IMG/VR virus record: IMGVR_UViG_3300030389_000481
Coordinates: 1-53,141 of that record
Length of the DNA: 53,141 bases
Origin: a virus
Taxonomy: Duplodnaviria > Caudoviricetes
Strand: one strand, 5' to 3'
The position numbers and the translations under genes were made by a program. Every line of letters begins with the position of its first letter. Within the stretch, counting starts at the first letter, position 1. The notes beneath the pieces are model-generated. The model was not told the origin of the DNA and searched no databases. It worked only from the letters and a program-made list of their open reading frames with translations. Positions 1-53,141 of the stretch are shown here, piece by piece.

Positions 1-1
1 A

Positions 2-99
2 TTGCATTGCTTATAAGAAGCAGGACTTCCTTGTTGCTCTTTAGATAAAGAGTTTATATCAAATTTATCTGTCATAGTATCCTCCTTAAGAATTTACAG
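2..99. repeat. Terminal direct overlap with 53044-53141 (circular assembly)
   Basis: 98 bp identical to the last 98 bases; base 1 (A) differs from its counterpart 53043 (G). Confidence 0.95.
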
Positions 100-271
100 A
101 TTTAGTTAAAATTTCAAGATACTTTTGCACCTTGAAGTATTCCACATCAGAAGATGTGTGAATTTGGTAGTGTTTTTTCTGAGTGTCAAATTTCTTTAAA
201 ATATTTAATGCATCTTCTATGCACGAAAACTCTAGAGTATATTTGTCATCAGGTAAATTAACATGTATCAT
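86..271 (-). CDS. First early gene, hypothetical protein (61 aa)
   Basis: ORF with AGGAG RBS at 278-282; its stop abuts the RBS of the next gene. Confidence 0.75.
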   Translation of the reverse strand: MIHVNLPDDKYTLEFSCIEDALNILKKFDTQKKHYQIHTSSDVEYFKVQKYLEILTKSVNS

Positions 272-321
272 AATTTTCTCCTATTAAAAAGGACTATTAA
301 GGGCAAACAAGTTCGTTGAAG

Positions 322-358
322 TCAAGAGTAGAGTCCATCGTAGATGGAAAACTCTTGA
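322..358 (+). other. Hairpin apex TCAAGAGT..TCCATC-GTA-GATGGA..ACTCTTGA, centre of the long inverted repeat
   Basis: 334-339 pairs with 343-348 around a GTA triloop; 322-329 pairs with 351-358. Confidence 0.85.
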
Positions 359-887
359 TATGCTTTAGCATACTTGCTTCATAAGGAGTTGGTTGCACAA
401 TAGTTTTATACTTTGACAGGAGAAAATTAAGATACATTTGAGAAAACTTATACAAATATATGAAATTTTTCGTGCATAGATTGGAGTTAAATCTTGGTCT
501 ATATTTGTAAACCAGAAAAAACACTACCAAATTTGCACTTTAAAAACTTGGAATACTTCAAGGTGCAATAGCCATAGGAGGGTGTTTGTAGATTAGCATG
601 AGGATACTATGACAGATGTTAAGAACTATAAAGTCTATGAAGTTTAGAAACAAGGAAGTCCTACTATTATATGCAACGCATTAGCAATTTTAAAAAAGCA
701 TGGTCGATTGGATGCGACATTGAAATCTTTGACATCAAATAAAAGATGTAAAACTAGGAAAACTCTACAAGTTATGAAGTTTTAAATACAAGGATAAGAT
801 TACAGATAGATGGTTTCGACTGATAAATTGCTAATGCACTTCTTCGGAGGTTTTTAAAGTGCTAGGGTAGGCAGGTGACCATACCAC
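343..887 (+). repeat. Right arm of a long patchy inverted repeat (partner: 52751-53141 plus 1-339)
   Basis: About 12 colinear blocks of 14-21 bp complementary to the first operon, e.g. 513-533/161-181, 549-568/125-144, 784-803/52873-52892. Confidence 0.95.
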
Positions 888-1101
888 CACCCATATATAT
901 CTATGCTATGCTTACACAAAATTACCAAAATCAGGTATTAACCAGTTCTTACATCTAGTTAACGCCCGGACTATATAATTCTATAAATACTTCAAAGAAA
1001 TATGCAATTAAATATGGCTAGTGGGATTGGTTGTAACCCGGTCGGGCACAAATATATTTTACAGTTCAGATTGGGTTTTGTCAATACCCTTCATCAAATA
1101 C

Positions 1102-2692: not shown

Positions 2693-2944
2693 ATGGATAT
2701 ACCAGTAAATTATATAAGAAGAACTTCATCGACTGTACCTTTTGGTTATAAAGAATCAGAAGATTATGTTGGTTATTTAGAACCTATTGAACATGAGTTA
2801 TCAATTCTAAAAGAAGTTGTAGAAGCTGTGTTTCATAAAGAAATTAGTTTAGGTATAGGAGTTGACTGGTTAGAAGCAGAAACAGGAAGAAAAATGTCAA
2901 GACCGGGCTTAAAAAAGATTGTAGATAAAAAGTATGGTAGATAA
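2693..2944 (+). CDS. Hypothetical protein, possible HTH DNA-binding
   Basis: VPFGY...ISL....WL...TGRKMS..GL pattern; overlaps TerL start. Confidence 0.6.
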   Translation: MDIPVNYIRRTSSTVPFGYKESEDYVGYLEPIEHELSILKEVVEAVFHKEISLGIGVDWLEAETGRKMSRPGLKKIVDKKYGR

Positions 2945-4577
2945 AGAAAAAAAAACTTCAAAATACTTGACAGATGCAAATGGCGACTATATACTAAATA
3001 AAGATGGTAGTCGTAGGAAAAAACCCGGCAGACCAAAAAATAAAGAATTATCTAATATTCAATTAGCATTAAGAGCTAAAAAACAATTAGATAAAAAGAA
3101 CAAGAAAGTTAAAAAGCTAACTAGAAGTTTAGCAAAAGTAAAAAAAGAAGTCAAACAAGAAGAAAAAGTTTTGACTTCAAATGTTTTAACAGAGTCAGAT
3201 ACTAAAGAGTTACCTGATGCAATACAAGAACATTTAGATACTACTGGGGATTATGTGGCGTTTATGCCCAATGATGGTCCTCAAACAGATTTTTTAGCTG
3301 CTTCCGAAAAGGATGTACTTTATGGAGGAGCAGCAGGTGGTGGTAAAAGTTTTGCAATGTTAATTGACCCATTGCGATATTGTCACTTACCAGAACATAG
3401 AGCTTTAATACTTAGGAGGTCTATGCCAGAACTACGAGAACTTATAGATAAGTCTCGTGAACTCTATCCAAGAGCATTTAAAGGTGCTAAGTTTAGAGAA
3501 GTAGAAAAGTTGTGGCAGTTTCCTAGTGGAGCCAAAATAGAATTTGGGTTCTTGGAACGAGATGCTGATGTTTATCGTTATCAAGGACAAGCGTACAGTT
3601 GGATAGGTTTTGATGAAATAACTCATTTACCTACAGAGTTTGGTTGGAATTACTTAGCATCACGACTAAGAACTACTAACCCAGAGATAAAAACATATCT
3701 AAGATGTACAGCTAACCCCGGTGGTGTAGGTGCACAATGGGTAAAAAAAAGATATGTTGATTCAGCAGAACCTAATACAACATTTAAAGGTTCAGATGGA
3801 TTAACAAGAAAGTTTATACCAGCGTTGTTACAGGATAATCCTTACCTCGCTGAAGATGGTGAATACGAAAGGATGTTAGAATCCTTACCAGCAGTACAGC
3901 GTAAGCAGTTGTTGGAAGGAAACTGGGATGTCGCAGAAGGTGCAGCGTTTGCTGAATTTGCTTTAGACACTCATGTTATATCTCCTTTTGAATTACCTTC
4001 TTGGTGGGAGAGGTTAAAAGGAATAGACTATGGTTACGCTGCAGAAAGTTGTTGTCTATGGGCTGCTGTAGACCCTGATGATAAGACCATCATTATATAT
4101 AGAGAATTATACAGGAAAGGTCTAACAGGGGAAGCACTCGCTGACACTATAACACAGATGGAAGAAAATGAAATTAAATCTATTCCGGGTGTTTTAGATA
4201 CTGCTGCATGGGCAAGAACTGGATATAGTGGTCCGACTATTGGTGAAACCCTAGTCAATAGAGGACATAAATTAAGAAGGGCAGATAAAAATAGAATAGC
4301 TGGTAAGACTCAAATACATGAGCATTTAAGGCAAAGAGATGGTGGCAGACCTAGATTGCAAATATTTAGTAGTTGTGTTAATCTAATTAAAGAATTACAA
4401 GGTATACCATTATCTTCTAAAAATCCGGAGGATGTAGATACACATGCTTCGGACCATGCTTATGATGCATTAAGGTATTTGTTAATGAGTAGACCAAGAA
4501 CAGACCATCCATATGATAGGATGATGCGAATAAAAACAGATTTATATCGACCTTCGGATGATGGATTTGGATACTAA
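2934..4577 (+). CDS. terL: Terminase large subunit
   Basis: Walker A GGAAGGGKS, Walker B FDE, coupling motif TANP, nuclease IDYG and DHAYDALRY. Confidence 0.95.
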   Translation: MVDKEKKTSKYLTDANGDYILNKDGSRRKKPGRPKNKELSNIQLALRAKKQLDKKNKKVKKLTRSLAKVKKEVKQEEKVLTSNVLTESDTKELPDAIQEHLDTTGDYVAFMPNDGPQTDFLAASEKDVLYGGAAGGGKSFAMLIDPLRYCHLPEHRALILRRSMPELRELIDKSRELYPRAFKGAKFREVEKLWQFPSGAKIEFGFLERDADVYRYQGQAYSWIGFDEITHLPTEFGWNYLASRLRTTNPEIKTYLRCTANPGGVGAQWVKKRYVDSAEPNTTFKGSDGLTRKFIPALLQDNPYLAEDGEYERMLESLPAVQRKQLLEGNWDVAEGAAFAEFALDTHVISPFELPSWWERLKGIDYGYAAESCCLWAAVDPDDKTIIIYRELYRKGLTGEALADTITQMEENEIKSIPGVLDTAAWARTGYSGPTIGETLVNRGHKLRRADKNRIAGKTQIHEHLRQRDGGRPRLQIFSSCVNLIKELQGIPLSSKNPEDVDTHASDHAYDALRYLLMSRPRTDHPYDRMMRIKTDLYRPSDDGFGY

Positions 4578-4579
4578 AT

Positions 4580-6793
4580 ATGGCAGAAGATAATACATTT
4601 TTAAATGCAAATAATCTATATGAAGATGTAGAAGGTGAAGCTGGTAAGCAATTAAAATTAGAAGATGACCAACTACAAAACCTTATCGGTATTATCAAGG
4701 GTAGATATGCTACAGCCGAAATGGCTAGAGATGTTGATGAAAGAAGGTGGATAAAAGCATATGAAAACTATCGTGGTTTGTATGCAAAAAATATAAAATT
4801 TAGAGAATCTGAAAAATCTAAAGTCTTTATAAAAATAACAAAAACAAAAGTACTAGCAGCATTTGGTCAGTTAGTAGATGTTATTTTTGGTACAGGTAAA
4901 TTTCCTATAGGTATAGCAGAAACAAAAGTACCAGAGGGAGAAGCTGATATAGCTCACCTTGATATTAATAATCCTAATCCTAACATTGAAACTTCTGAAC
5001 CTAATATGGAAGATATGGATGTTGATGGTAACTCTGTTGATTATGTAAGTCCATACGATGTAGGTTATGAAGGTGATGGTAATGTACTAAAGCCCGGAGC
5101 TACACAGTTTAATGGTATTTATGAAGAACCTGTAGATGTACAAGCAGATAAAGCAGGTATACTTTCAGATGGAGCTAGTGCTATTCCACAAGAGATAGAA
5201 ATATCTCCAGCACAAAAAGCTGCAAGAAGAATGGAAAAACTTATTCATGACCAAATAGATGAATCACATGGTTCGGCTGAAATAAGAAATGCTCTTTTAG
5301 AATCTGCTTTACTTGGTACAGGGATTGTAAAAGGACCATTTAATTTTAATAAAAAACTACATAAATGGGATAAAGATGAAGATGGTAATAGAACATATAA
5401 TCCATTAGAAGTCAGAGTTCCTAGAATAGAGTTTGTAAGTTGTTGGGATTTTTATCCAGACCCATCAGCTACAAGCATGGAAGAATGTGAGTATGTTATT
5501 CACAGACATAGATTAAATCGTAGTGAACTAAGACAACTACGAAATATGCCTTACTTTAATGAAGATGCTATTCGTGAAGCTATTCAAATGGGTGCAAACT
5601 ATGTTGAAAAAGATTATGAAGCACAGTTGCGTGATGATAGGAGAGCTGATGAAGATATAGGTAATGACTATGAGGTGCTTGAATACTGGGGTATTATGGA
5701 TGCCGAGTATGCTAGAGAAGTAGGTATTGAATTACCAAAGTCAGTAGATGATTTAGATGAAGTTCAAATAAATGCTTGGATATGTGGTAACACAGTATTA
5801 AGAGCAGTTGTTAATCCATTTGAACCTTATAGAATACCATACCATGCATTTCCATACGAAAGAAATCCATATAACTTCTTTGGTATAGGAATAGCAGAAA
5901 ACATGGATGACTCTCAACAAATTATGAATGGTCATGCAAGAATGGCTATTGATAACTTAGCAATGTCAGGTTCACTAGTATTTGATGTAGATGAATCTGC
6001 ATTAGTTGGTGGACAAAGTATGGATATATATCCCGGCAAAATATTTAGAAGACAAGCTGGGATGCCCGGACAAGCAATACATGGAGTTAAGTTTCCAAAT
6101 ACATCACATGAAAACATGATGATGTTTGACAAGTTTAGACAACTTGCAGATGAACAAACAGGATTACCTAGTTATTCACACGGACAAACTGGTGTGCAAA
6201 GTATGACAAGGACTGCTTCTGGTATGTCAATGTTATTAGGAGCAGCTAGTTTAAATATAAAAACTGTTGTCAAGAATCTTGATGACTTTTTATTAAGACC
6301 TTTAGGAGAAGCGTACTTTCAATGGAACATGCAGTTTCATGAAGGTGAGTTAGATGTTGAAGGTGATTTAGAAGTTAGAGCTACTGGTACAAATAGCTTA
6401 ATGCAAAAAGAAGTACGAAGTCAAAGATTGACTATGTTCTTACAAACTGCACAAAGTCCAGCTATCGCACCATTTGTTAAAATTTCTAAATTAATTAGTG
6501 AACTTGCCTACAGCTTAGATTTGGACCCTGATGAAATACTCAATGACCCAGAAGAAGCTGCAATGATGGCACAGATAATAGGAATGCAAAATGCTAGACA
6601 AGAAAATAGCGAGGAAGCTCAACCCCTTGGTCAACAACAGGGAGCAATGGGAGGTAATGCAGGAACACCTGTCGAACCTCAAGAACTTGGCGTTACAGGA
6701 ACTGGTGGTGGCAACATCGGAATCGGAAATGCTCCGGTTGCAGGGGAAGATTCGTTCTCTGGCAATGTTGGAATCCCTACCGGAACAGGTTAA
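4580..6793 (+). CDS. Portal protein
   Basis: 737 aa directly after TerL; DFYPDP, FFGIG and RTASGMSML motifs typical of podovirus portals. Confidence 0.85.
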   Translation: MAEDNTFLNANNLYEDVEGEAGKQLKLEDDQLQNLIGIIKGRYATAEMARDVDERRWIKAYENYRGLYAKNIKFRESEKSKVFIKITKTKVLAAFGQLVDVIFGTGKFPIGIAETKVPEGEADIAHLDINNPNPNIETSEPNMEDMDVDGNSVDYVSPYDVGYEGDGNVLKPGATQFNGIYEEPVDVQADKAGILSDGASAIPQEIEISPAQKAARRMEKLIHDQIDESHGSAEIRNALLESALLGTGIVKGPFNFNKKLHKWDKDEDGNRTYNPLEVRVPRIEFVSCWDFYPDPSATSMEECEYVIHRHRLNRSELRQLRNMPYFNEDAIREAIQMGANYVEKDYEAQLRDDRRADEDIGNDYEVLEYWGIMDAEYAREVGIELPKSVDDLDEVQINAWICGNTVLRAVVNPFEPYRIPYHAFPYERNPYNFFGIGIAENMDDSQQIMNGHARMAIDNLAMSGSLVFDVDESALVGGQSMDIYPGKIFRRQAGMPGQAIHGVKFPNTSHENMMMFDKFRQLADEQTGLPSYSHGQTGVQSMTRTASGMSMLLGAASLNIKTVVKNLDDFLLRPLGEAYFQWNMQFHEGELDVEGDLEVRATGTNSLMQKEVRSQRLTMFLQTAQSPAIAPFVKISKLISELAYSLDLDPDEILNDPEEAAMMAQIIGMQNARQENSEEAQPLGQQQGAMGGNAGTPVEPQELGVTGTGGGNIGIGNAPVAGEDSFSGNVGIPTGTG

Positions 6794-17774: not shown

Positions 17775-19610
17775 ATGAAGAAATTAGTAATAAGTTTAAA
17801 AAGAAGACAAGATAGAAAAGTAGAATTTAAAAAAAATAATTTAAAAGATTTTAAATATTTAGAAGCTATAGATTATAAAACTTTAAATAATAAAAATTTT
17901 AAAGTTGATGAAAATTTTAAAGACCCTTTTCTAAATAGACAAACTTTAAAAAGTGAAGTAGCTTGTTTTTTATCTCATAAAAAAGCATGGGAAGAATGTC
18001 TAAGACTTTATGAACCTGTAATTATTTTAGAAGATGATGCAGTTATAAATGATACATGGGATGAAGAATACTATGAAAAGTTACTAGAAGATTATGAGTT
18101 TATTTATCTTCAAAGAAACGAAAATGAACCTGATAAGGTTGTAAGTATAGATGATAGAATAGAAAAACCATCTTACCCTTACAATTTAACAGGATATGTT
18201 ATAGAACCTACAACTGCTACAAAGTTATTACACAATTATAAAGAAATAATACCAGTTGATGAATACATACCTCGGTTAATTAAAAAAGGTCAAATAGATG
18301 CTGTAGCTTTGAAACATGATGCATGTAATCAGTTACCAAGAAGCATAAGCGAGAGTGATATAGAAAATAATAAAACAGCTAGAAACTTTACTGTACATCC
18401 AATTACAGTAGGTTCAGATAGGCTGAAATGTGTTAAGTTAAACACAAGTGCTAGAAAACATGGTATTGAAGTAAAAAACTTAGGTACTAATGTAGAATGG
18501 AAAGGAACAGATATGTCTGGTCCGGGTGGTGGAATGAAAGCCAACCTACTAAGAGATTATGTAAATACTCTACCAGACAATGATGTAGTTTTATTTACAG
18601 ATGCATACGATGTATTTTATGCAGATAATTTAGAAACTATAACTGAAAGATATTTAGACTTTAATACTAAAGCAGTTTTTTCAGCAGAGTTATATTGTTA
18701 TCCTGATGCTAGTATAGCAAATGAGTTTCCAGAATCTAATACACCTTATAGGTATTTGAATAGTGGAACATTTATAGCTCAAGTAGGAGAACTAAAAAAA
18801 ATGTTTGCTTCTTCTACTGTAGCTGATGATGGTGATGACCAACTGTATTATCAGAAGTTATTACTAAGTAATGAGTTTGATATGACTTTGGATTATGAAG
18901 GTTATATTTTTCAAACACATGAAGAAGCAACAGGTATAAATAGTTCAGGACAACTTTATAATCCTAGAACAAATTGTTGTGCTTGTATTTATCATGGTAA
19001 TGGTGGAGACAATACTAAAGATAAATTTAATGCTTTATACAATGTCTTTCATCCTAGAACTGATTATTATTTTAGTCCTAGTAATTCATATGACATTATA
19101 GAAGATGATATGTTAGTAGCTGACTTTATGACTCAAGAACAATGTGAAAGACTTATTGAGTTAGCTGATAAGAATGGAAACTGGGATAGTTTAAAATATG
19201 ATAAGTTTCCAGCACAAGAAATAAGAATAAAAGAATTAGGTTTGTGGACAGAGTTAGAAGCTAAGTGGAATGAATTTATAGTTCCAATACTAGAAAAATA
19301 TTGGAAGCCTACAGAGATGTATGGTTTAAGAGATGCATTCGTAATGCGATATAATTTAGATACACAAAAAGATTTACCTTTACATACTGATGCAAGTTTA
19401 GTAACAGGAAGTGTAAAGTTAAATGATGATTATGAAGGAGCTGATTTATTTTATCCTAGACAAAATATCAGCAACAAAGATATACCAGTAGGAAAAATAC
19501 TTTTATTTCCCGGTATGGTAACACACGGACATGAGTGCTTACCTTTAACAAAAGGAACAAAATATAGTTTTACTATCTGGTCTAATAGATTTCCCGGAGA
19601 TAACATATAA
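17775..19610 (+). CDS. GT25 glycosyltransferase + PLOD-type glycosyltransferase + 2OG-Fe(II) lysyl-hydroxylase-like fusion
   Basis: EVACFLSH/ILEDD (GT25); GGGMK, FTDAYD, YLNSG, DDQLYY, HGNG (PLOD GT); FVMRY, LPLHTDAS, THGHE (LH). Confidence 0.85.
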   Translation: MKKLVISLKRRQDRKVEFKKNNLKDFKYLEAIDYKTLNNKNFKVDENFKDPFLNRQTLKSEVACFLSHKKAWEECLRLYEPVIILEDDAVINDTWDEEYYEKLLEDYEFIYLQRNENEPDKVVSIDDRIEKPSYPYNLTGYVIEPTTATKLLHNYKEIIPVDEYIPRLIKKGQIDAVALKHDACNQLPRSISESDIENNKTARNFTVHPITVGSDRLKCVKLNTSARKHGIEVKNLGTNVEWKGTDMSGPGGGMKANLLRDYVNTLPDNDVVLFTDAYDVFYADNLETITERYLDFNTKAVFSAELYCYPDASIANEFPESNTPYRYLNSGTFIAQVGELKKMFASSTVADDGDDQLYYQKLLLSNEFDMTLDYEGYIFQTHEEATGINSSGQLYNPRTNCCACIYHGNGGDNTKDKFNALYNVFHPRTDYYFSPSNSYDIIEDDMLVADFMTQEQCERLIELADKNGNWDSLKYDKFPAQEIRIKELGLWTELEAKWNEFIVPILEKYWKPTEMYGLRDAFVMRYNLDTQKDLPLHTDASLVTGSVKLNDDYEGADLFYPRQNISNKDIPVGKILLFPGMVTHGHECLPLTKGTKYSFTIWSNRFPGDNI

Positions 19611-38812: not shown

Positions 38813-40708
38813 TTACCCCTCACAGGCTATACATTCCACATCATCCAACTTTATTCGTGGAACTTTAATATTTACATTCTCTACATTTCTAGCAGCGTTG
38901 GACCTAAAATAGTAAAGTGATTTAAGTTTATTCATACCATACCAATGAACATCATTTACATACTGCATGTATTCATCATGAGTATCTTGCCCTTCTGTTG
39001 CTTTTGGTAAAGTAAAAAAGAGATTAACAGATTGTGCTTGACAAATATATTGTTGTCTTTGATAGGCATGTTCAACTACCCATATCTGATTTATCTCATT
39101 TGCTGTTTTAAATACTTCTTTTTCTTCATCAGTAAGAATATCTAAGTGTTGAACTGAACCATCCTTCCCAGATATATCTTTCCAAAGCTCCTCTAATTCT
39201 TTACCCTTGAGTCCTTTGTCTTTGAAAATCTTTTCAAGGAATTTGTTCTTAACTTGATAACTGCCTGATAAAGTTTTGTGAGTATATGCGTTGGCACGAT
39301 AAGGCTCAATAGAAGGACTAGTACCGGAACAGATAATCCCAGAACTAGCGTTAGGAGCAATAGCAAGAAGATTAGCATTGCGACTGTCATGACCATGTAA
39401 ATCAGGGCATTCACCACGCAACTCAGCAAGTCTTTTAGAAGCTTTAGAAGCTTTGTCTTTGATGTGTTTAAAAGCTTTATGGTTGAAACTCGTAGCGAAT
39501 AATCCCTCGAATGGAATATTTCTAGACTGGAGGTAAGCATGGAATCCCATAGAGCCAAGACCCAACGACCTTTCTCTATAAGCAGAGTATGCAGATTTTG
39601 CAAACCCTTCTTTACCTTCCTTGACATACTTACTAAACCTTGTGTAATTTGCACTATAGCCTCCTAGCTGTGATGTATCTACAGCATTTTCAATATAATG
39701 TTCTATAACATTATCTAACATTGTTATTAAGTCTTCGATAAACTGTGGGTCTTTGGACCAAGTATCAAAGTGTTCTAAGTTAACAGATGATAAACAACAT
39801 ACTGCTGTTCTTTCTTCATCTGTTGGTAAAGTAATCTCTGAACATAAATTACTTTGTTTAATTGATAACCCTAATTTCTTTTGAGGTTCTGGTAAAGCAT
39901 CATTACAAGTATCAATATTAACCATGTAAGGTTCACCAGTCTCTGCTCTAGCATTTATAATTTGGAACCATAAGTCTCTAGCATTGATAGTCTTAACAGC
40001 TTCATTAGTCTTAGGGTCAATAAGTCTCCAGTCTTCATCATTCTTAACAGCATCTAAGAATGCATTAGTAATGTTTACTCCATTGTGTAAGTTCAAACAT
40101 TTTCTATTTATATCACCACCAGATTCTTTTCTCATGTTGATAAATTCTTCTATCTCTGGATGACTAACATCCATGTAAGCAGCATAAGAGCCTCTCCTTG
40201 TGGTGCCTTGATTAAAGGCTAACATCTGAGAGTCTACTACATGCATGAATGGAATAGAGCCAGTTGAACGAGAGCCATGAGTAGTAGATATACCATTGCT
40301 CCTAACATCACCCCAGTATCCACCGATACCTCCACCTGAACTAGCCAACCATATATTTTCATCGAAGTGAGCAGATAGACCAGTCCTAGAGTCAGGTACA
40401 TAATTAAGAAAACAAGAGATAGGTAACCCACGAGTGGTACCCCCGTTGCTAAGTATAGGAGTGCTAAACATGAACCACCTCCGGGAACTGTAGTTATAAA
40501 TTCTTTGAGCCATTTCATAATCTGTATCTCCTTTAAATGTAGATGCATAAACAGAAGCTCTGGCAAGTGCTTCCTGTGCGTGAGTTTCATCCCCCCAGAA
40601 ATACCTATCTCTAAGAGTGTCTATACTAAACTTGTCAAAGTCTTTTTCTCTGTCATAGTCTATTTGTATACCAAGGTATTCTTTAATACCTACTTTGTCT
40701 GTTATCAT
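38813..40708 (-). CDS. nrdA: Ribonucleotide reductase class I alpha subunit (no ATP cone)
   Basis: STPILSNG, ISCFL, SNLCSEI, APNASS, KSLYY, C-terminal CIACEG. Confidence 0.95.
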   Translation of the reverse strand: MITDKVGIKEYLGIQIDYDREKDFDKFSIDTLRDRYFWGDETHAQEALARASVYASTFKGDTDYEMAQRIYNYSSRRWFMFSTPILSNGGTTRGLPISCFLNYVPDSRTGLSAHFDENIWLASSGGGIGGYWGDVRSNGISTTHGSRSTGSIPFMHVVDSQMLAFNQGTTRRGSYAAYMDVSHPEIEEFINMRKESGGDINRKCLNLHNGVNITNAFLDAVKNDEDWRLIDPKTNEAVKTINARDLWFQIINARAETGEPYMVNIDTCNDALPEPQKKLGLSIKQSNLCSEITLPTDEERTAVCCLSSVNLEHFDTWSKDPQFIEDLITMLDNVIEHYIENAVDTSQLGGYSANYTRFSKYVKEGKEGFAKSAYSAYRERSLGLGSMGFHAYLQSRNIPFEGLFATSFNHKAFKHIKDKASKASKRLAELRGECPDLHGHDSRNANLLAIAPNASSGIICSGTSPSIEPYRANAYTHKTLSGSYQVKNKFLEKIFKDKGLKGKELEELWKDISGKDGSVQHLDILTDEEKEVFKTANEINQIWVVEHAYQRQQYICQAQSVNLFFTLPKATEGQDTHDEYMQYVNDVHWYGMNKLKSLYYFRSNAARNVENVNIKVPRIKLDDVECIACEG

Positions 40709-41295
40709 TATTTAAACCTTTTTCCTTCAAACCAAGCTACTAAAGTTCTTCTAGTTCCTGATGTAACTGGTGTTACTCTATGTAATAAAAAAGAAGGAAA
40801 TACTAAAACACTTCCTCTATCATATATATTGTTTGGTAAGTCTTGTCCTGAACCATCTCTTAAATGGAACTCTCCCCCTTCATATTCATCACCATCACTT
40901 AATTGAACAGTCACACTTAACTTTCTATGAAAGGCATTAGGTGTATCTAAAAAAGTATCTATATGCCAATCATAGTGGTCACCACCATCATGATAAACAG
41001 TATACTGAACACTATCTAAATAACTAATATCAAATCCAAAATTAGTTCTGTTAGCATCATTAACTACATTCCATAATTTATTTGATACTACATTCCATAA
41101 CTCATTATGGTTAGAATTATTATACTGAATAAATCCTGTTTTGCTTTTTCTGTATAAAGATTCTTTATCTCCTTCCTCTCCAATAACAGCATTGTTTATA
41201 TCTAAAACTTTTTCAGACTCTTGTATAATCCAGTCGCACTCTGCATCACTAAATTCATTCCCATATATTTTATTACTTTTCATAATCCCACTCAT
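40708..41295 (-). CDS. 2OG-Fe(II) oxygenase (prolyl-4-hydroxylase-like)
   Basis: HYDWHID, RKLS, YEGGE, FPSF..HRVTPVTSGTR. Confidence 0.9.
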   Translation of the reverse strand: MSGIMKSNKIYGNEFSDAECDWIIQESEKVLDINNAVIGEEGDKESLYRKSKTGFIQYNNSNHNELWNVVSNKLWNVVNDANRTNFGFDISYLDSVQYTVYHDGGDHYDWHIDTFLDTPNAFHRKLSVTVQLSDGDEYEGGEFHLRDGSGQDLPNNIYDRGSVLVFPSFLLHRVTPVTSGTRRTLVAWFEGKRFK

Positions 41296-42504: not shown

Positions 42505-44185
42505 CTAATTCGCAACGCAACTTATAAAATTCACCGGCTTGTTTTATCGCATCACACCCTAAACTACCAACTCTATCTGCTTCACTTGATAATACTTCTA
42601 ACTGCCATTCATCATGTATGTTAGCTACAAACTTAGCATCAATGTTACTAGCTTTAATTGATTCATTTAAAATACACATAGCTTTCTTCATTACTATAGC
42701 ACCACTACCTTGTAGTAGAGTGTTCAAAGCAGAGTGAGGACTTCTGACATATATTTTTCTTCTGTCAATTCCTAGTAAAAACCCTCTACTTGCAGCCATC
42801 TGCACCTTATCTCTTAATTTTCTTAATGCAGGTAAGTTCTTAAAAAATCTTTCTTTCAGTTCTTTACCTTTCTTAATATTACCTTTAGCTATCTTACCTA
42901 TCTTAGCATCACCTGCTCCATAAACCAAAGCATATATAAATGTTTTAGCTTGGTCTCTAGTTTGTAATCCTGCTAACTCTTGATTGGTTGTATGTATATC
43001 TCCATGTAAAACTTCATTAATATAATTATCATCAGCCATGTAGTGAGCTAACATTCTTAACTCTAATCCACTAGCATCTATACCTACTAACTTATAGTTT
43101 TCTGGCACAGTAAAACATGCCCTACATTCCTTACCAAAAGGACTTCCTAAGTTTGGAACTTGAGCCATGTTAGGATTTCTATGAGTCATTCTGCCTGTTA
43201 TAGTTCCATTGGGAATAACTCTACCATGAACTCTATTATCTTTTAGTTCATCTATCCATGATGATATTTGTGCTATTCTTTTTTGGAATAGTAAATAGTC
43301 TGCTATTAGTTTAGCTTCTTCAATATGTTCAATCTTTTTAAGTGTGCCTTCATCTACAATAGGTTGACCAGTAGGAGTAAACCTTTCAGGTTTCCAACCA
43401 AAGTCAATAAGATATTCTCCTATTTGTTTGCGACTTCCTAAATTAAACTCAACTAACTTCTGTCTCATAAAAGGTTCAACACTTTGATTTTTAATACAGT
43501 TTTCATATTCTTCATCTGTTAATCCTCTCTTACTTAACTGACCATCTTTCTTGATGTATGGTGTAACTAACTTATCATCTACAAGCTTGGGTTTAAATGT
43601 AGCTTGAACTAATAGTTCTGTTTGTGCCATTCTGTCTTGTAAGTCTGCAAGTAATTCCATTGCTTGTCTTTCATTAAAATGAAATCCTGTTTGTTCTTGC
43701 TCTGTAATAATCCCTGCTACTGCATGTTCTAGCTCTAGTGAGTGCTTACTAAAACCTTTACTTTCATTCAACAAATGCAAATATACTTTTTCATTTAACA
43801 ATACATCACCTGCACAATACTCTAACATGGTAGGAGAATAAGAGGTGAAATCTTCTGGCTGTTCTTGCTTAAACATTCCAACTCTATATCCCCATGTCTT
43901 TAGACTATGTCCATTTTCCCTTACAGGATTGTAAAGTCTGGACATCACTAAAGTATCCACTACTTCCCCATGATAATCAAAGTCATGCAGTTCCTTTAAT
44001 ACTCTTAAATCAAAACCAATTATATTGTGACCAATTAAAGTGTCAGCTTTACTAAGTAAATCTAAACCATCTTGTATTTCATTTGGACCAAACTTATATA
44101 ACTTGCCTTCTAAATCTTTTGCAACTAAACACCAAACTCTTGTAGCAAGTAAATCATCTGTCTCTATATCAAAAATCAATTTCAT
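42461..44185 (-). CDS. DNA polymerase family A (T7-like, with 3'-5' exonuclease)
   Basis: DIETD exo, DASGLELR, R..AKTFIY...YG, HDE; start likely MKLIF at 44185. Confidence 0.95.
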   Translation of the reverse strand: MKLIFDIETDDLLATRVWCLVAKDLEGKLYKFGPNEIQDGLDLLSKADTLIGHNIIGFDLRVLKELHDFDYHGEVVDTLVMSRLYNPVRENGHSLKTWGYRVGMFKQEQPEDFTSYSPTMLEYCAGDVLLNEKVYLHLLNESKGFSKHSLELEHAVAGIITEQEQTGFHFNERQAMELLADLQDRMAQTELLVQATFKPKLVDDKLVTPYIKKDGQLSKRGLTDEEYENCIKNQSVEPFMRQKLVEFNLGSRKQIGEYLIDFGWKPERFTPTGQPIVDEGTLKKIEHIEEAKLIADYLLFQKRIAQISSWIDELKDNRVHGRVIPNGTITGRMTHRNPNMAQVPNLGSPFGKECRACFTVPENYKLVGIDASGLELRMLAHYMADDNYINEVLHGDIHTTNQELAGLQTRDQAKTFIYALVYGAGDAKIGKIAKGNIKKGKELKERFFKNLPALRKLRDKVQMAASRGFLLGIDRRKIYVRSPHSALNTLLQGSGAIVMKKAMCILNESIKASNIDAKFVANIHDEWQLEVLSSEADRVGSLGCDAIKQAGEFYKLRCELDGEYKVGGDWSETH

Positions 44186-45812
44186 TATCGAATGTCTCCT
44201 CCTCTGTAAGTTCATGTAGTCTACCAGTATCAACATCATATGTAAGACTACAAGCCATACCTGTGTCGCCTGTATATCTTGATTTCAATACACGAACTTT
44301 TGTTATATTAGCTTCTTCTGGATTTTCTGCTTGTTGATTTCTCTCCAATGCAATCACACAATCGGACAACTGTGCTATTCCTTGTGAACCTTTAAGATGT
44401 GAGAGAGATACTTCTATGCCTTTCTCATGTCCTCTGTCTCCAGAAGCTCTACGCAAGTGAGAAACAAGTATCATCCCAACACCTGTCTCCTCTACCAAAC
44501 TACGAAGTCTGTTCATGAGCATATCAATACCTCTCCTTTCATCACCCTCTGTCAACACATTTACCAACATGTGTAAGTGGTCAACAACTACCCAGTCACA
44601 CTCACATCCTACAATAATATATCTGAGCTTAGAAAAGATTTCATCAATATCAGTAGCTCCTAAATGTGCATGGATAAATACTCTACCCTTTTGAATTGCC
44701 TTATCAAAGAAGGCATTTAGTTCTTCATCAGAATAATTCTTTCGTTTCTCTGTAAGATACAGTCTGTCATTAGCTTCAATAGATACAATACCATCTGCAG
44801 TTCTCACCCAGTTTTCTTCTAATGCCACAATACCTACATTATCTTTTGTGTTCTTAATTAAATGGTGTTCAAGTTCTCTAGTCACACTAGACTTACCTAG
44901 TCCTGTTCCACCAGTTAAAGTTACCAGCTCACCTTTTCTCATACCATAGAGTTTCTTGTTCAGTCCTTCCCAAGGATAAGCAATACTTTCTTTAACTTCT
45001 CTATGTAACCAGTCACTCTTTTTATCATGTAGTTCTATAATGCCAGAGGGAGTGTAAGTCTTAGCTTCCCACCAAGAATTAGTAAACTCTTTGAACTTTT
45101 TCTTGACAAGCATTTCGTTTGCATCCTTGTATCCATTTGGTAAGTTTACTATCTTAGCTTTGCCCGGCTTAAGAATACGAGCCACCTGTCTGGCAGCTTC
45201 TCTACCTGCCTTGTCATTATCAAAACAAAGAACAACATTGTCGAAGCTTTCAACAAACTCAATGCTCTCTCTAATATCTTTTACAGCAGAAGATGCTCCT
45301 CGTTTGATAGATACAACTGCCCACTTGTCTTGAAACAATTCATTGACTGCCATTGCATCACATTCACCCTCAGTAATTGTTAGATACTTACCACCAGTAT
45401 TACGATACAACTGCTCACCAAACAAACCTGTTCCTTGAAAACTTCCATTGCAAGTAAAGTTTTTATTGTCAACATATCTAGTTTTAGTTCCAACTATTTC
45501 ACTTCCATTGTAGTAAGGATATATATGTTGTTTGATTTTATTATTATTATCTCTTACTGTCCTTACTCCAAACTTCCTTGCAGTATTTTCAGATATGCCT
45601 CTATCCTCTAAAGAACTATAGCTCCCTGTATATGAAGTAAGAAAAGTAGTTTCGCTTTTTATAGGTGTAATGTTTGCTTCACCAGTCTCATAATCATAGT
45701 AAGCATTACAACTGAAACATTTTGCATAGCCATTACTATTCAATGACACAGCATCTGAACTGTCACACTTCTTGCATGGCAGTTTATGTTTAACAAATTT
45801 AGAATTTTCCAT
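44169..45812 (-). CDS. T7 gp4-like primase-helicase
   Basis: Cys4 zinc finger, TOPRIM EGE.D/FDND, GTGLGKS, DHL, LKGS. Confidence 0.95.
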   Translation of the reverse strand: MENSKFVKHKLPCKKCDSSDAVSLNSNGYAKCFSCNAYYDYETGEANITPIKSETTFLTSYTGSYSSLEDRGISENTARKFGVRTVRDNNNKIKQHIYPYYNGSEIVGTKTRYVDNKNFTCNGSFQGTGLFGEQLYRNTGGKYLTITEGECDAMAVNELFQDKWAVVSIKRGASSAVKDIRESIEFVESFDNVVLCFDNDKAGREAARQVARILKPGKAKIVNLPNGYKDANEMLVKKKFKEFTNSWWEAKTYTPSGIIELHDKKSDWLHREVKESIAYPWEGLNKKLYGMRKGELVTLTGGTGLGKSSVTRELEHHLIKNTKDNVGIVALEENWVRTADGIVSIEANDRLYLTEKRKNYSDEELNAFFDKAIQKGRVFIHAHLGATDIDEIFSKLRYIIVGCECDWVVVDHLHMLVNVLTEGDERRGIDMLMNRLRSLVEETGVGMILVSHLRRASGDRGHEKGIEVSLSHLKGSQGIAQLSDCVIALERNQQAENPEEANITKVRVLKSRYTGDTGMACSLTYDVDTGRLHELTEEETFDNEIDF

Positions 45813-52629: not shown

Positions 52630-52750
52630 CCCTCTATAATTATGCCAAGTCTTAAAAACAAATCGCCCTCAATTACTCTGCCGACACTCCCTCTATTACT
52701 CTGCCCTGCCCACTAAACCTTAAATCTAAATCTAAACTTAAATTTAAATT
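52630..52750. repeat. Three 17-bp direct repeats plus a TAAAYY hexamer array
   Basis: Near-identical CCCTC..TGCC 17-mers at 52630, 52666 and 52689; about 6 hexamers at 52714-52750. Confidence 0.75.
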
Positions 52751-52808
52751 GTGGTTTGGACACCTGCCAATATAAAAAGTCTTCCATCCTTATTCAAAAC
52801 CCTAGCAG

Positions 52809-52835
52809 AAAAAAAAGCACCTCCGAAGAAGTGCT
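52809..52835 (-). terminator. Rho-independent terminator of the first operon
   Basis: AGCACTTC-TTCG-GAGGTGCT followed by a T-run. Confidence 0.85.
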
Positions 52836-52844
52836 TTAAAAGGA

Positions 52845-53117
52845 TTAGCAGTCGTGTTCTGCTAAATATTTAGTAATCTTATCCTTGTATTTTTTAGGTA
52901 AAGATTTCTTTGAAAATAAATCAGATGCTTGTTTGCAAGTTAGTTTTCCTTGTTTTACATCTGAATAAAGGCAACCAAAGATTTGCCCTTTTAATTTCCA
53001 ATCGACCATGCTACCTTTTTTCGCAAAGCGTATTGCTAATGCGTTGCATTGCTTATAAGAAGCAGGACTTCCTTGTTGCTCTTTAGATAAAGAGTTTATA
53101 TCAAATTTATCTGTCAT
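52845..53117 (-). CDS. Second early gene, basic hypothetical protein (90 aa)
   Basis: AGGAGG RBS; continues from gene 86-271 across the circular junction. Confidence 0.75.
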   Translation of the reverse strand: MTDKFDINSLSKEQQGSPASYKQCNALAIRFAKKGSMVDWKLKGQIFGCLYSDVKQGKLTCKQASDLFSKKSLPKKYKDKITKYLAEHDC

Positions 53118-53141
53118 AGTATCCTCCTTAAGAATTTACAG

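Follow-up and report, generated by a model that had tools for sequence, protein, structure and literature searches.

What does a small hairpin do at the head of the early genes of a marine phage? The question is raised by the IMG/VR record IMGVR_UViG_3300030389_000481, a complete virus record of 53,141 bases that we analysed at its full length and refer to as the window. An earlier note had drawn attention to a fold at positions 293-404, capped by a C-GNA-G triloop hairpin, and had suggested that it presents a promoter that works only in the folded state. The fold lies within the 865 bp that separate the first leftward gene (86..271) from TerS, and the + strand is the template for the leftward genes 86..271 and 52845..53117. 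The earlier note left out two parts of the context: the genome is of the HMO-2011 type, and a palindrome of about 0.9 kb surrounds the fold. As set out below, the fold covaries among close relatives, the palindrome recurs through much of the clade with arms that evolve in concert, and two features of the palindrome, mismatches and hairpin loops, favour the + strand, mainly in other subclades. Our tentative answer is that the tip is a strand-specific fold-back signal in + strand DNA.

The fold consists of the following parts:

334..348, + strand: apex hairpin TCCATC (334-339), GTA (340-342), GATGGA (343-348), read directly and recovered by a scan for perfect stems; 6-bp stem, GNA triloop closed by C:G
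322..358, + strand: two-tier hairpin with an 8-bp lower stem, an AGAG/AA internal loop and the 6-bp upper stem
293..404, + strand: extended fold and tip of the palindrome, basal helix of 293-321 with 377-404; minimum free energy structure of 280-420
359..372, + strand: side hairpin TATGC-TTTA-GCATA, on the right flank only

The apex stands on the template strand of the early genes, as the earlier note had described it, and the two small hairpins that it listed, TGC-TTTA-GCA (361-370) and CTTC-ATAA-GGAG (377-388), are present. The outer stem of the two-tier hairpin pairs TCAAGAGT (322-329) with ACTCTTGA (351-358). Folded as DNA, positions 318-362 reach -9.4 kcal/mol (z -5.2, 0/200 shuffles as good; -18.2 and z -5.5 as RNA), and DNA folds of the two-tier hairpin region range from z -5.2 to -5.9, with 0/200 shuffles. 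The + strand of 280-420 folds at -22.7 (z -5.0, 0/200 shuffles) and pairs exactly 293-404, with the side hairpin at 359-372. RNA parameters agree with the DNA fold; the RNA energies of the central fold are -41.6 kcal/mol for the + strand and -34.4 kcal/mol (z -4.0) for the - strand.

Four distinct sequences share this centre: the window, L157 (97.8% DNA identity), L010 (on one IMG/VR contig with L012; gene 2 is 87% identical) and L117, which is of the L010 type; L178 is an identical copy. Over these four, 98.2% of the cells of the 42 pairs are paired (3/168 unpaired), and nine of the 42 pairs have changed on both sides, whereas sliding the partners by 1-3 columns leaves 0-1 such pairs. With a covariation score of 0.270, versus 0.124 in shuffles, the fold is matched by none of 500 shuffles. 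The fold proposed at 293-404 is thus a real, covarying structure. Compensated pairs are found in all four helices: in two of the six pairs of the apex stem (in L010 and L117), in four of the 14 pairs of the two-tier hairpin, of which none is broken and whose internal loop is invariant, and in one of the five pairs (T:A to G:C) of the one-sided side hairpin, which is the fourth helix. One compensated pair, 306/393, even distinguishes the window from strain L157. The flanks TTATTAAGGGCA, AAGTTCGTTGAAGTCAA, CTTGCTTCATAAG and TGCACAATA are invariant in all four sequences. The loop is GTA in the window, in L157 and in a strain seen in metagenome run X5, TTT in L010 and TAT in L117. The pattern is clear, with the thin statistics of four sequences from two lineages: the structure is kept, and the GNA loop is not required in the window's lineage.

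The contig of run X5, which comes from another study, has 933 nt and spans 219-1150 with three substitutions, one insertion and an unchanged hairpin. As this independent contig bridges 219-1150 and the assembly is circular (see below), an assembly artefact or chimera is ruled out. Searches for further copies gave no match for 1-1200 by blastn against GenBank phages, 0 matches for the exact 37-nt hairpin in IMG/VR, the L010 contig only for a conserved 23-nt box, and three true relatives among the 119 matches listed from a 17-mer scan of metagenome contigs.

At 322-358, no terminator-like element was called on either strand (the downstream sequences are TATGCTT on the + and CTTCAAC on the - strand). 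A protelomerase target or hairpin telomere does not fit: the central GTA is not self-complementary, the arms are about 68% alike, and no protelomerase or recombinase was found among the 18 large proteins scanned. Rfam 15, searched over 1-1300 with E<=1, returned a lone match of 13 bits at 1077-1136, in a family with a gathering score of 60.

The fold is the centre of an imperfect palindrome of about 0.9-1 kb, the left arm of which runs across the contig ends. The last 98 bases (53044-53141) repeat positions 2-99 of the window, indicating a circular assembly with a unit of about 53,043 bp. The overlap (1-99 / 53044-53141) is offset by one mismatched first base, which is why IMG/VR classes this circular assembly as "linear", and gene 2 is split by the contig ends; a relative, G001, has the same type of 98-nt end overlap. 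The arms are:

1..288, - strand: inner left arm, with gene 1 (86..271, 61 aa) and its ribosome-binding site, and the start of gene 2
52799..53141, - strand: outer left arm, with gene 2 (52845..53117, 90 aa) and a terminator (52837 to 52814)
412..868, + strand: right arm, a decayed non-coding mirror copy of genes 1 and 2

Read from 288 to 1 and on to 52942, the left arm matches the right arm from 412 to 764 with 67.8% identity over 394 columns (E 9e-22); a second match, of 71%, joins 52892 to 52799 with 784 to 868 (E 1e-7). The palindrome is unique in the genome, with a self-inverted match at E<1e-6 in just one of 47 sliding 2.2-kb windows. No + strand open reading frame (ORF) of 30 aa or more exists in the right arm: the start codon of gene 1 has changed from ATG to AAG, and the copy of gene 2 stops after 12 codons. 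Complementarity of the arms is best over the ribosome-binding sites and start codons (18/18 for 67-84/600-617, 88% for 263-288/412-437), and the tip is paired to 98% as against about 68% for the arms.

The right arm also has a terminator-like copy at 838-862. Its + strand reads ACTTC-TTCG-GAGGT followed by TTTT and could end transcription that runs rightward through the mirror arm; in the L047 subclade, both the stem and the T run of this copy have been lost. The copy of the gene 2 start is a tandem duplicate (624-656 and 761-794, about 137 nt apart; families D4 and D6, 77-86% alike). Just beyond each arm (868-895 and 52747-52770) there is a GGCAGGTG..CCA.ACCA box, and because the two boxes are inverted and flank both arms, the symmetry reaches past the terminators. 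We rejected two further accounts of the palindrome. An inverton is contradicted by the lack of joints in contigs, by the same orientation in 4/4 cases and by the absence of a recombinase among the 18 large proteins scanned. A telomere or fixed genome end finds no support in complete relatives, which break at arbitrary places (G001 with its 98-nt overlap, G002 and G003 with none); these break points carry no information on virion ends.

IMG/VR holds 219 TerS relatives, of which we took the best 80; the palindrome census comprises the 63 TerS-linked sequences (62 loci and the window) with at least 1400 nt upstream of TerS. A self-inverted alignment of at least 600 columns is present in 40/63, as a palindrome of 0.55-1.2 kb with its centre 800-1015 nt upstream of TerS and with arms that are 65-73% identical (E down to 1e-160). 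Seven of the 63 have no palindrome and the others have shorter ones; none of the three cultured phages HTVC115P, 103P and 104P has a long palindrome. Among 35 distinct palindromes, the left arm genes are always kept, and the longest ORF of the right arm has at most 41 aa in 32 (61-88 aa in L015, L018 and L024). The centres of other subclades cannot be aligned with that of the window, yet each genome's own arms still match.

A tree built from 22 left and 22 right arms groups the right arms with the left arms of their own subclade, forcing at least eight label changes (starred branches); right arms have branch lengths of 0.2-0.5, left arms of 0.01-0.1. In eight subclade comparisons, 230 pairs have changed on both sides and are still paired, and 69 are broken, compared with 29 and 40 in slid controls (5681 paired cells in the real alignment and 2687, about half, in the slid one). 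Given these counts, arm complementarity is actively maintained, by selection or by short-patch conversion.

The strand on which the full palindrome would preferably fold was judged from counts of mismatch pairs. There are 968 (574+394) arm mismatches with G·T on the + strand and 281 (168+113) with G·T on the - strand. The bias is strong in most subclades (95:10 in L030) and absent in the window (33:27) and some others. Recent one-sided changes show it too, on both arms (286 for the + and 141 for the - strand). Replication or transcription mutation bias does not account for the G·T excess: four-fold degenerate sites have no + strand enrichment of G or T, and deamination of the non-template strand in the course of leftward transcription would predict the reverse sign.

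The triloops are the second strand-specific signal. Close to the palindrome centres (within 100 nt), perfect triloop hairpins number 24: 16 have GNA on the + strand, none has GNA on the - strand and eight have other loops; elsewhere in the same loci the numbers are 20, 20 and 383. The middle base of the central GNA loops varies (T, C or A). In all seven sequences of this type that were examined, the apex-type hairpin stands 67-71 nt from the start codon of gene 1, in subclades that cannot be aligned at the centre. The significance that the earlier note gave to the GNA triloop therefore holds in part: in distant relatives it recurs at the centre, on the template strand only (16:0), and in the closest diverged relatives it is not kept (TTT, TAT). 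Across 201-nt centres, the + strand is the more stable one in 34/35. As sense strands fold better genome-wide, this is not independent evidence.

The reading that we put first, with somewhat less than even confidence, is that the tip is a strand-specific fold-back signal of + strand DNA at the head of the early operon and marks initiation there. It takes up the fold and its covariation, the palindrome and the concerted evolution of its arms, and the + strand wobble bias and GNA enrichment of the clade, all of which are observed. That the folded molecule is DNA and not RNA, what unwinds it and which enzyme reads it, we infer. The right arm would be a non-coding mirror held complementary to genes 1 and 2 and the terminator of the left arm. 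The apex hairpin would nucleate extrusion or fold-back whenever the + (template) strand is unwound, be it during replication or resection or through negative supercoiling, the source of which would be the divergent promoters on either side. Once folded, the strand would be a landmark for the initiation of transcription or of primer synthesis at the early operon head, in a mode akin to N4 early promoters and to the mini-hairpins of primase-dependent single-strand initiation (ssi) signals, and without membership in either family.

According to excerpts of PMC13037366, only GNA triloops give an extra-stable DNA mini-hairpin, the RNA form being much weaker, and such mini-hairpins mark the primase origins of G4, St-1 and alpha3, ssiA of RSF1010 and the early promoters of N4; in the primase-dependent signals of these phages and of RSF1010, GNA or GNNA mini-hairpins mark primer starts and exclude single-stranded DNA-binding protein (SSB). 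The fold studied here resembles the ssi signals in its GNA mini-hairpin and in that the phage has its own T7-type primase-helicase (44169-45812). It differs from them in hairpin sequence.

Several points weigh against the DNA fold-back reading. Short-patch gene conversion or template switching could yield compensated pairs without selection. The relatives are not independent, and the GNA hairpins represent perhaps 4-6 homologous families. The window's own arms are nearly without wobble bias (33 versus 27) and the sister lineage of the window has TTT and TAT loops and not GNA, so it is mainly other subclades that supply the two strand-specific signals. The stability of the + strand in 34/35 centres adds nothing, being matched by the genome-wide sense-strand effect, and the central fold, nearly free of G·T pairs, can be adopted by both strands of the DNA and by RNA. 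No single-stranded DNA stage, enzyme, origin or transcription start has been observed, and a - strand RNA that spans both arms is very likely made, which favours a role at the RNA level. The earlier note's idea that the first operon is read from the folded + strand has a mixed record: the mismatch spectrum of the surrounding palindrome favours it, and double-stranded DNA packaging and a duplex promoter in 35/35 relatives speak against it. A further step of the fold-back reading is rather doubtful, namely that the mirror arm lets the unwound or resected template strand pair with itself into a pseudo-duplex capped by the mini-hairpin, which could then serve for transcription or priming, either earlier than the normal duplex or independently of it. 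If true, this would be a single-strand device of the Frpo/ssi type outside plasmids and single-stranded DNA phages, in a highly abundant group of ocean phages.

The promoter-like elements of this region are:

1056..1084, - strand (1084 to 1056): far promoter P_far, TTGACA-17-TAAAAT, found by scan with 11/12 matches
296..325, - strand: the earlier note's leftward promoter-like site, TTGACT (325 to 320)-18-CTTAAT (301 to 296), invariant in 4/4 sequences
355..412, + strand: right-flank hexamers TTGATA (355-360), CACAAT (396-401) and TATACT (407-412); CACAAT is invariant, and TATACT is TATAAT in L010 and L117

P_far lies about 780 nt upstream of gene 1, and an equivalent (TTGACA-17-TAnAAT) was found in 35/35 distinct relatives, as was a rightward TTGACA-17-TATACT back to back with it, beside TerS. 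Strong central promoters (at least 10/12 matches) are restricted to L013/14, L015/18, L017 and L030. To judge from these promoter sequences, early transcription probably comes at least partly from P_far and runs through the right arm, which would yield a - strand RNA with both arms. Metatranscriptome contigs from three runs cover 1-145 (X19) and 1157-1341 (X18 and X20) and nothing of 146-1156; as contigs they are uninformative on absence, strand and start sites. Right after the predicted P_far start, at 1025-1049 (- strand), there is a short G+C-rich hairpin (CCCG-ACC-GGG type), with varied forms in relatives, which may be a 5' stabilising stem. The rightward promoter (1102-1139 region) ends 7 nt before the ATG of TerS (1137) with no Shine-Dalgarno sequence between; for this reason TerS is probably translated from a leaderless mRNA. 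All 35 distinct relatives share this arrangement.

The strongest alternative, unlikely as we judge it, acts on this RNA: the - strand transcript from P_far would fold back on genes 1 and 2, with 293-404 as a tip for processing or translational control just upstream of the ribosome-binding site of gene 1. Its main argument is the probable transcription through the right arm described above. P_far is near consensus and present in 35/35 relatives, and strong central promoters are found in a minority; the best complementarity covers ribosome-binding sites and start codons, and these stretches covary within each genome; the fold is stable as - strand RNA (-34.4 kcal/mol, z -4.0), and the palindrome ends at the operon terminator. 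There are precedents in that the c4 RNA of P1 and P7 is a cis-encoded antisense control by inverted repeats within one operon, and RNase III sites occur in T7 early leaders. As in these systems, ribosome-binding sites further downstream would find their complement in an upstream part of the transcript, and an early gene is preceded by a two-tier hairpin that has an internal loop; unlike them, the complementarity extends over about 0.5 kb including coding sequence, and the wobble bias is on the wrong strand for a P_far RNA. This bias speaks against an RNA: pairing of the - strand transcript predicts mismatches that are G·U-compatible on the - strand, and the opposite is seen (281 versus 968 in the arms, 141 versus 286 among recent changes), with a strong - strand bias in no lineage. 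Moreover, the loops would read UNC on the - strand, a type for which stability is not known, and no Rfam family matches.

An ordinary duplex control region, with divergent sigma70 promoters that have their -35 boxes in the outer stem halves and with a dimeric regulator whose symmetric half-site changes mimic compensation, is an improbable explanation of the tip. The TTGA of both -35-like boxes, TTGACT and TTGATA, is invariant, with four upstream bases that vary symmetrically; the four flanks named above are invariant in sequence in 4/4; and the centre of L017 has a rightward TTGATA-17-TATAAT. However, the promoter scan called no sigma70 duplex promoter inside 289-411; TTGACT-18-CTTAAT is missed because its second hexamer has no A at position 2. 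Covariation takes in 112 nt, with the basal helix, the one-sided side hairpin and the asymmetric internal loop among them, and so reaches far beyond a dimer operator. No regulator was recognised, with genes 1-3 lacking PHROG and Pfam matches, and the 0.5-kb arms would be left unexplained.

Slightly less credible is that the palindrome has no function of its own: it would go back to an old inverted duplication and maintain itself as a by-product, with template switching or gene conversion keeping the arms alike, and the tip hairpin would be no more than its centre. Right arms do decay fast (branch lengths of 0.2-0.5 as against 0.01-0.1) and appear to be re-copied episodically, and the three cultured phages do without a long palindrome. 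Its retention in 40/63 sequences across subclades with unalignable centres, and the pairing of the tip (98%) far above that of the arms (about 68%), are difficult to explain in this way, and strand-asymmetric mismatches and a 16:0 GNA bias are unexpected from conversion alone.

The earlier note had itself proposed a sigma70 promoter that exists only in the fold, similar to Frpo, with TTGATA and CACAAT of the right flank as non-template strand, so that genes 1 and 2 would be on when folded and off when duplex. The pieces are all there: the leftward TTGACT-18-CTTAAT lacks the critical A as stated, one base away from the coordinates implied; both right-flank hexamers are present; and the geometry of a looped-out spacer is consistent in itself, with 35 nt from TTGATA to CACAAT on the right flank versus 18 nt on the template, the difference of 17 nt including the covarying side hairpin 359-372. 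In addition, the pairing needed is exactly the covarying fold, CACAAT is invariant, the mirror arm would give the template a pseudo-duplex partner from promoter to terminator, and the + strand wobble bias fits. We nevertheless regard this promoter as very unlikely: the terminase and portal genes imply packaging and entry of double-stranded DNA, with no single-stranded stage known; a three-way junction would be needed between -35 and -10; most relatives offer no -10-like hexamer at the centre on either strand; and a strong duplex promoter, P_far, lies upstream. Frpo elements, as far as excerpts of PMC11541004 describe them, are imperfect folds of one DNA strand that present promoter hexamers, and the fold studied here would likewise set -35-like and -10-like hexamers opposite the template of the first expressed genes. 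Frpo and ssi elements of conjugative plasmids enter as single-stranded DNA, whereas this is a tailed phage with, to judge from its genes, double-stranded DNA; 17 nt are looped out between the hexamers here; and the mirror arm, of about 0.5 kb, covers a whole transcription unit, compared with 50-350 nt for Frpo.

Least probable is a true N4-type early promoter. According to the excerpted text of PMC4496689, promoters of the N4 virion RNA polymerase have, on the template strand, a 5-7 bp stem with a 3-nt 5'-G..A-3' loop closed by C:G; the hairpins extrude at physiological supercoiling and resist SSB, and the contact bases are a purine at -11, G at -10, G at -8 and C at +1. Stem, loop and strand of 334-348 agree with this, as does the position of the C-GNA-G hairpin, which stands where the early region begins, upstream of its first gene; early and late blocks diverge from one intergenic region as in N4, and TerL relatives occur among many podophages. 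An N4-type promoter, a system that the earlier note had cited for its triloops, is nonetheless largely refuted, since by the same excerpts G340 (-10) is the only match among the contact bases (-11 is T341, -8 is T338 and +1 is A330), the nearest relatives do not conserve the loop, the early end has a single hairpin where N4 has three (no second GNA hairpin was found in the early intergenic regions of the window), the hairpin tips a 112-nt covarying fold and a kilobase palindrome, and no virion or T7-like RNA polymerase was found. The search for the latter covered PHROGs on the 18 large proteins, which gave no RNA polymerase, recombinase or protelomerase; PF00940 in six frames over the genome, with 0 matches and control genomes equally silent; and Pfam, PDB sequence search and Atlas, with no leads for the ORFs of 952 and 1256 aa. 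The phage may still have a very divergent RNA polymerase.

HMO-2011-type phages are among the most abundant marine viruses. On how their early transcription and replication start, we found nothing in print. The main text of the ISME J 2022 survey of these phages (PMC9038755) makes no mention of a promoter, terminal or inverted repeat, palindrome or replication origin, and the transcriptome paper PMC12753301 deals with other pelagiphages, HTVC022P and HTVC027P. Searches of the literature on HMO-2011-type phages and pelagiphages, N4 and Frpo brought up no paper that describes an element of this kind for the group. What many lineages maintain here is the complementarity of a non-coding stretch of DNA to two genes for proteins. 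A fold that acts on DNA would carry hairpin-dependent initiation beyond N4, single-stranded DNA phages and plasmids, to a phage dependent on the host polymerase; one that acts on RNA would be a cis-antisense control of early genes of unusual length. In both cases the early operon has at its head an element that is concrete and can be tested.

The genome around it is that of an HMO-2011-type podophage of an uncultured marine lineage. TerL (2934-4577) is 69.8% identical to TerL of Pelagibacter phage HTVC115P, and more distantly related to those of HMO-2011 and the roseophage CRP phages. The late genes point rightward and reach from TerS to about 37.3 kb, and the largest ORF of the genome is a 1506-aa tail fibre; TerS, TerL and portal genes are present and imply double-stranded DNA packaging. 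Leftward, from 53117 and 271, run many small early genes and a T7-like replication module (primase-helicase, family A DNA polymerase, gp2.5-like SSB, exonuclease, ribonucleotide reductase). GC skew changes sign where the gene orientation does, near 37 kb and near 0 kb, and for this reason it does not discriminate an origin from a coding-strand effect.

Two genes resemble 2OG-Fe(II) oxygenases, one in the structural block (17775-19610, 611 aa) and one in the replication block (40708-41295, 195 aa). Between the right arm and P_far, 865-1000 (core 938-963) is the most conserved non-coding stretch of the clade. Positions 850-1052 were rejected as a structured RNA (RNAalifold on 15 sequences gave six invariant pairs and no covariation). 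In the core, TTAACCAG (938-945) and CTAGTTAA (955-962) form an inverted repeat that is invariant, although its spacer differs in length among relatives. By its appearance it is a candidate binding site for a protein, with a possible role in packaging or replication; the intergenic region of HTVC115P (L002, about 4240-4640) has CTAGTTAAC three times as well.

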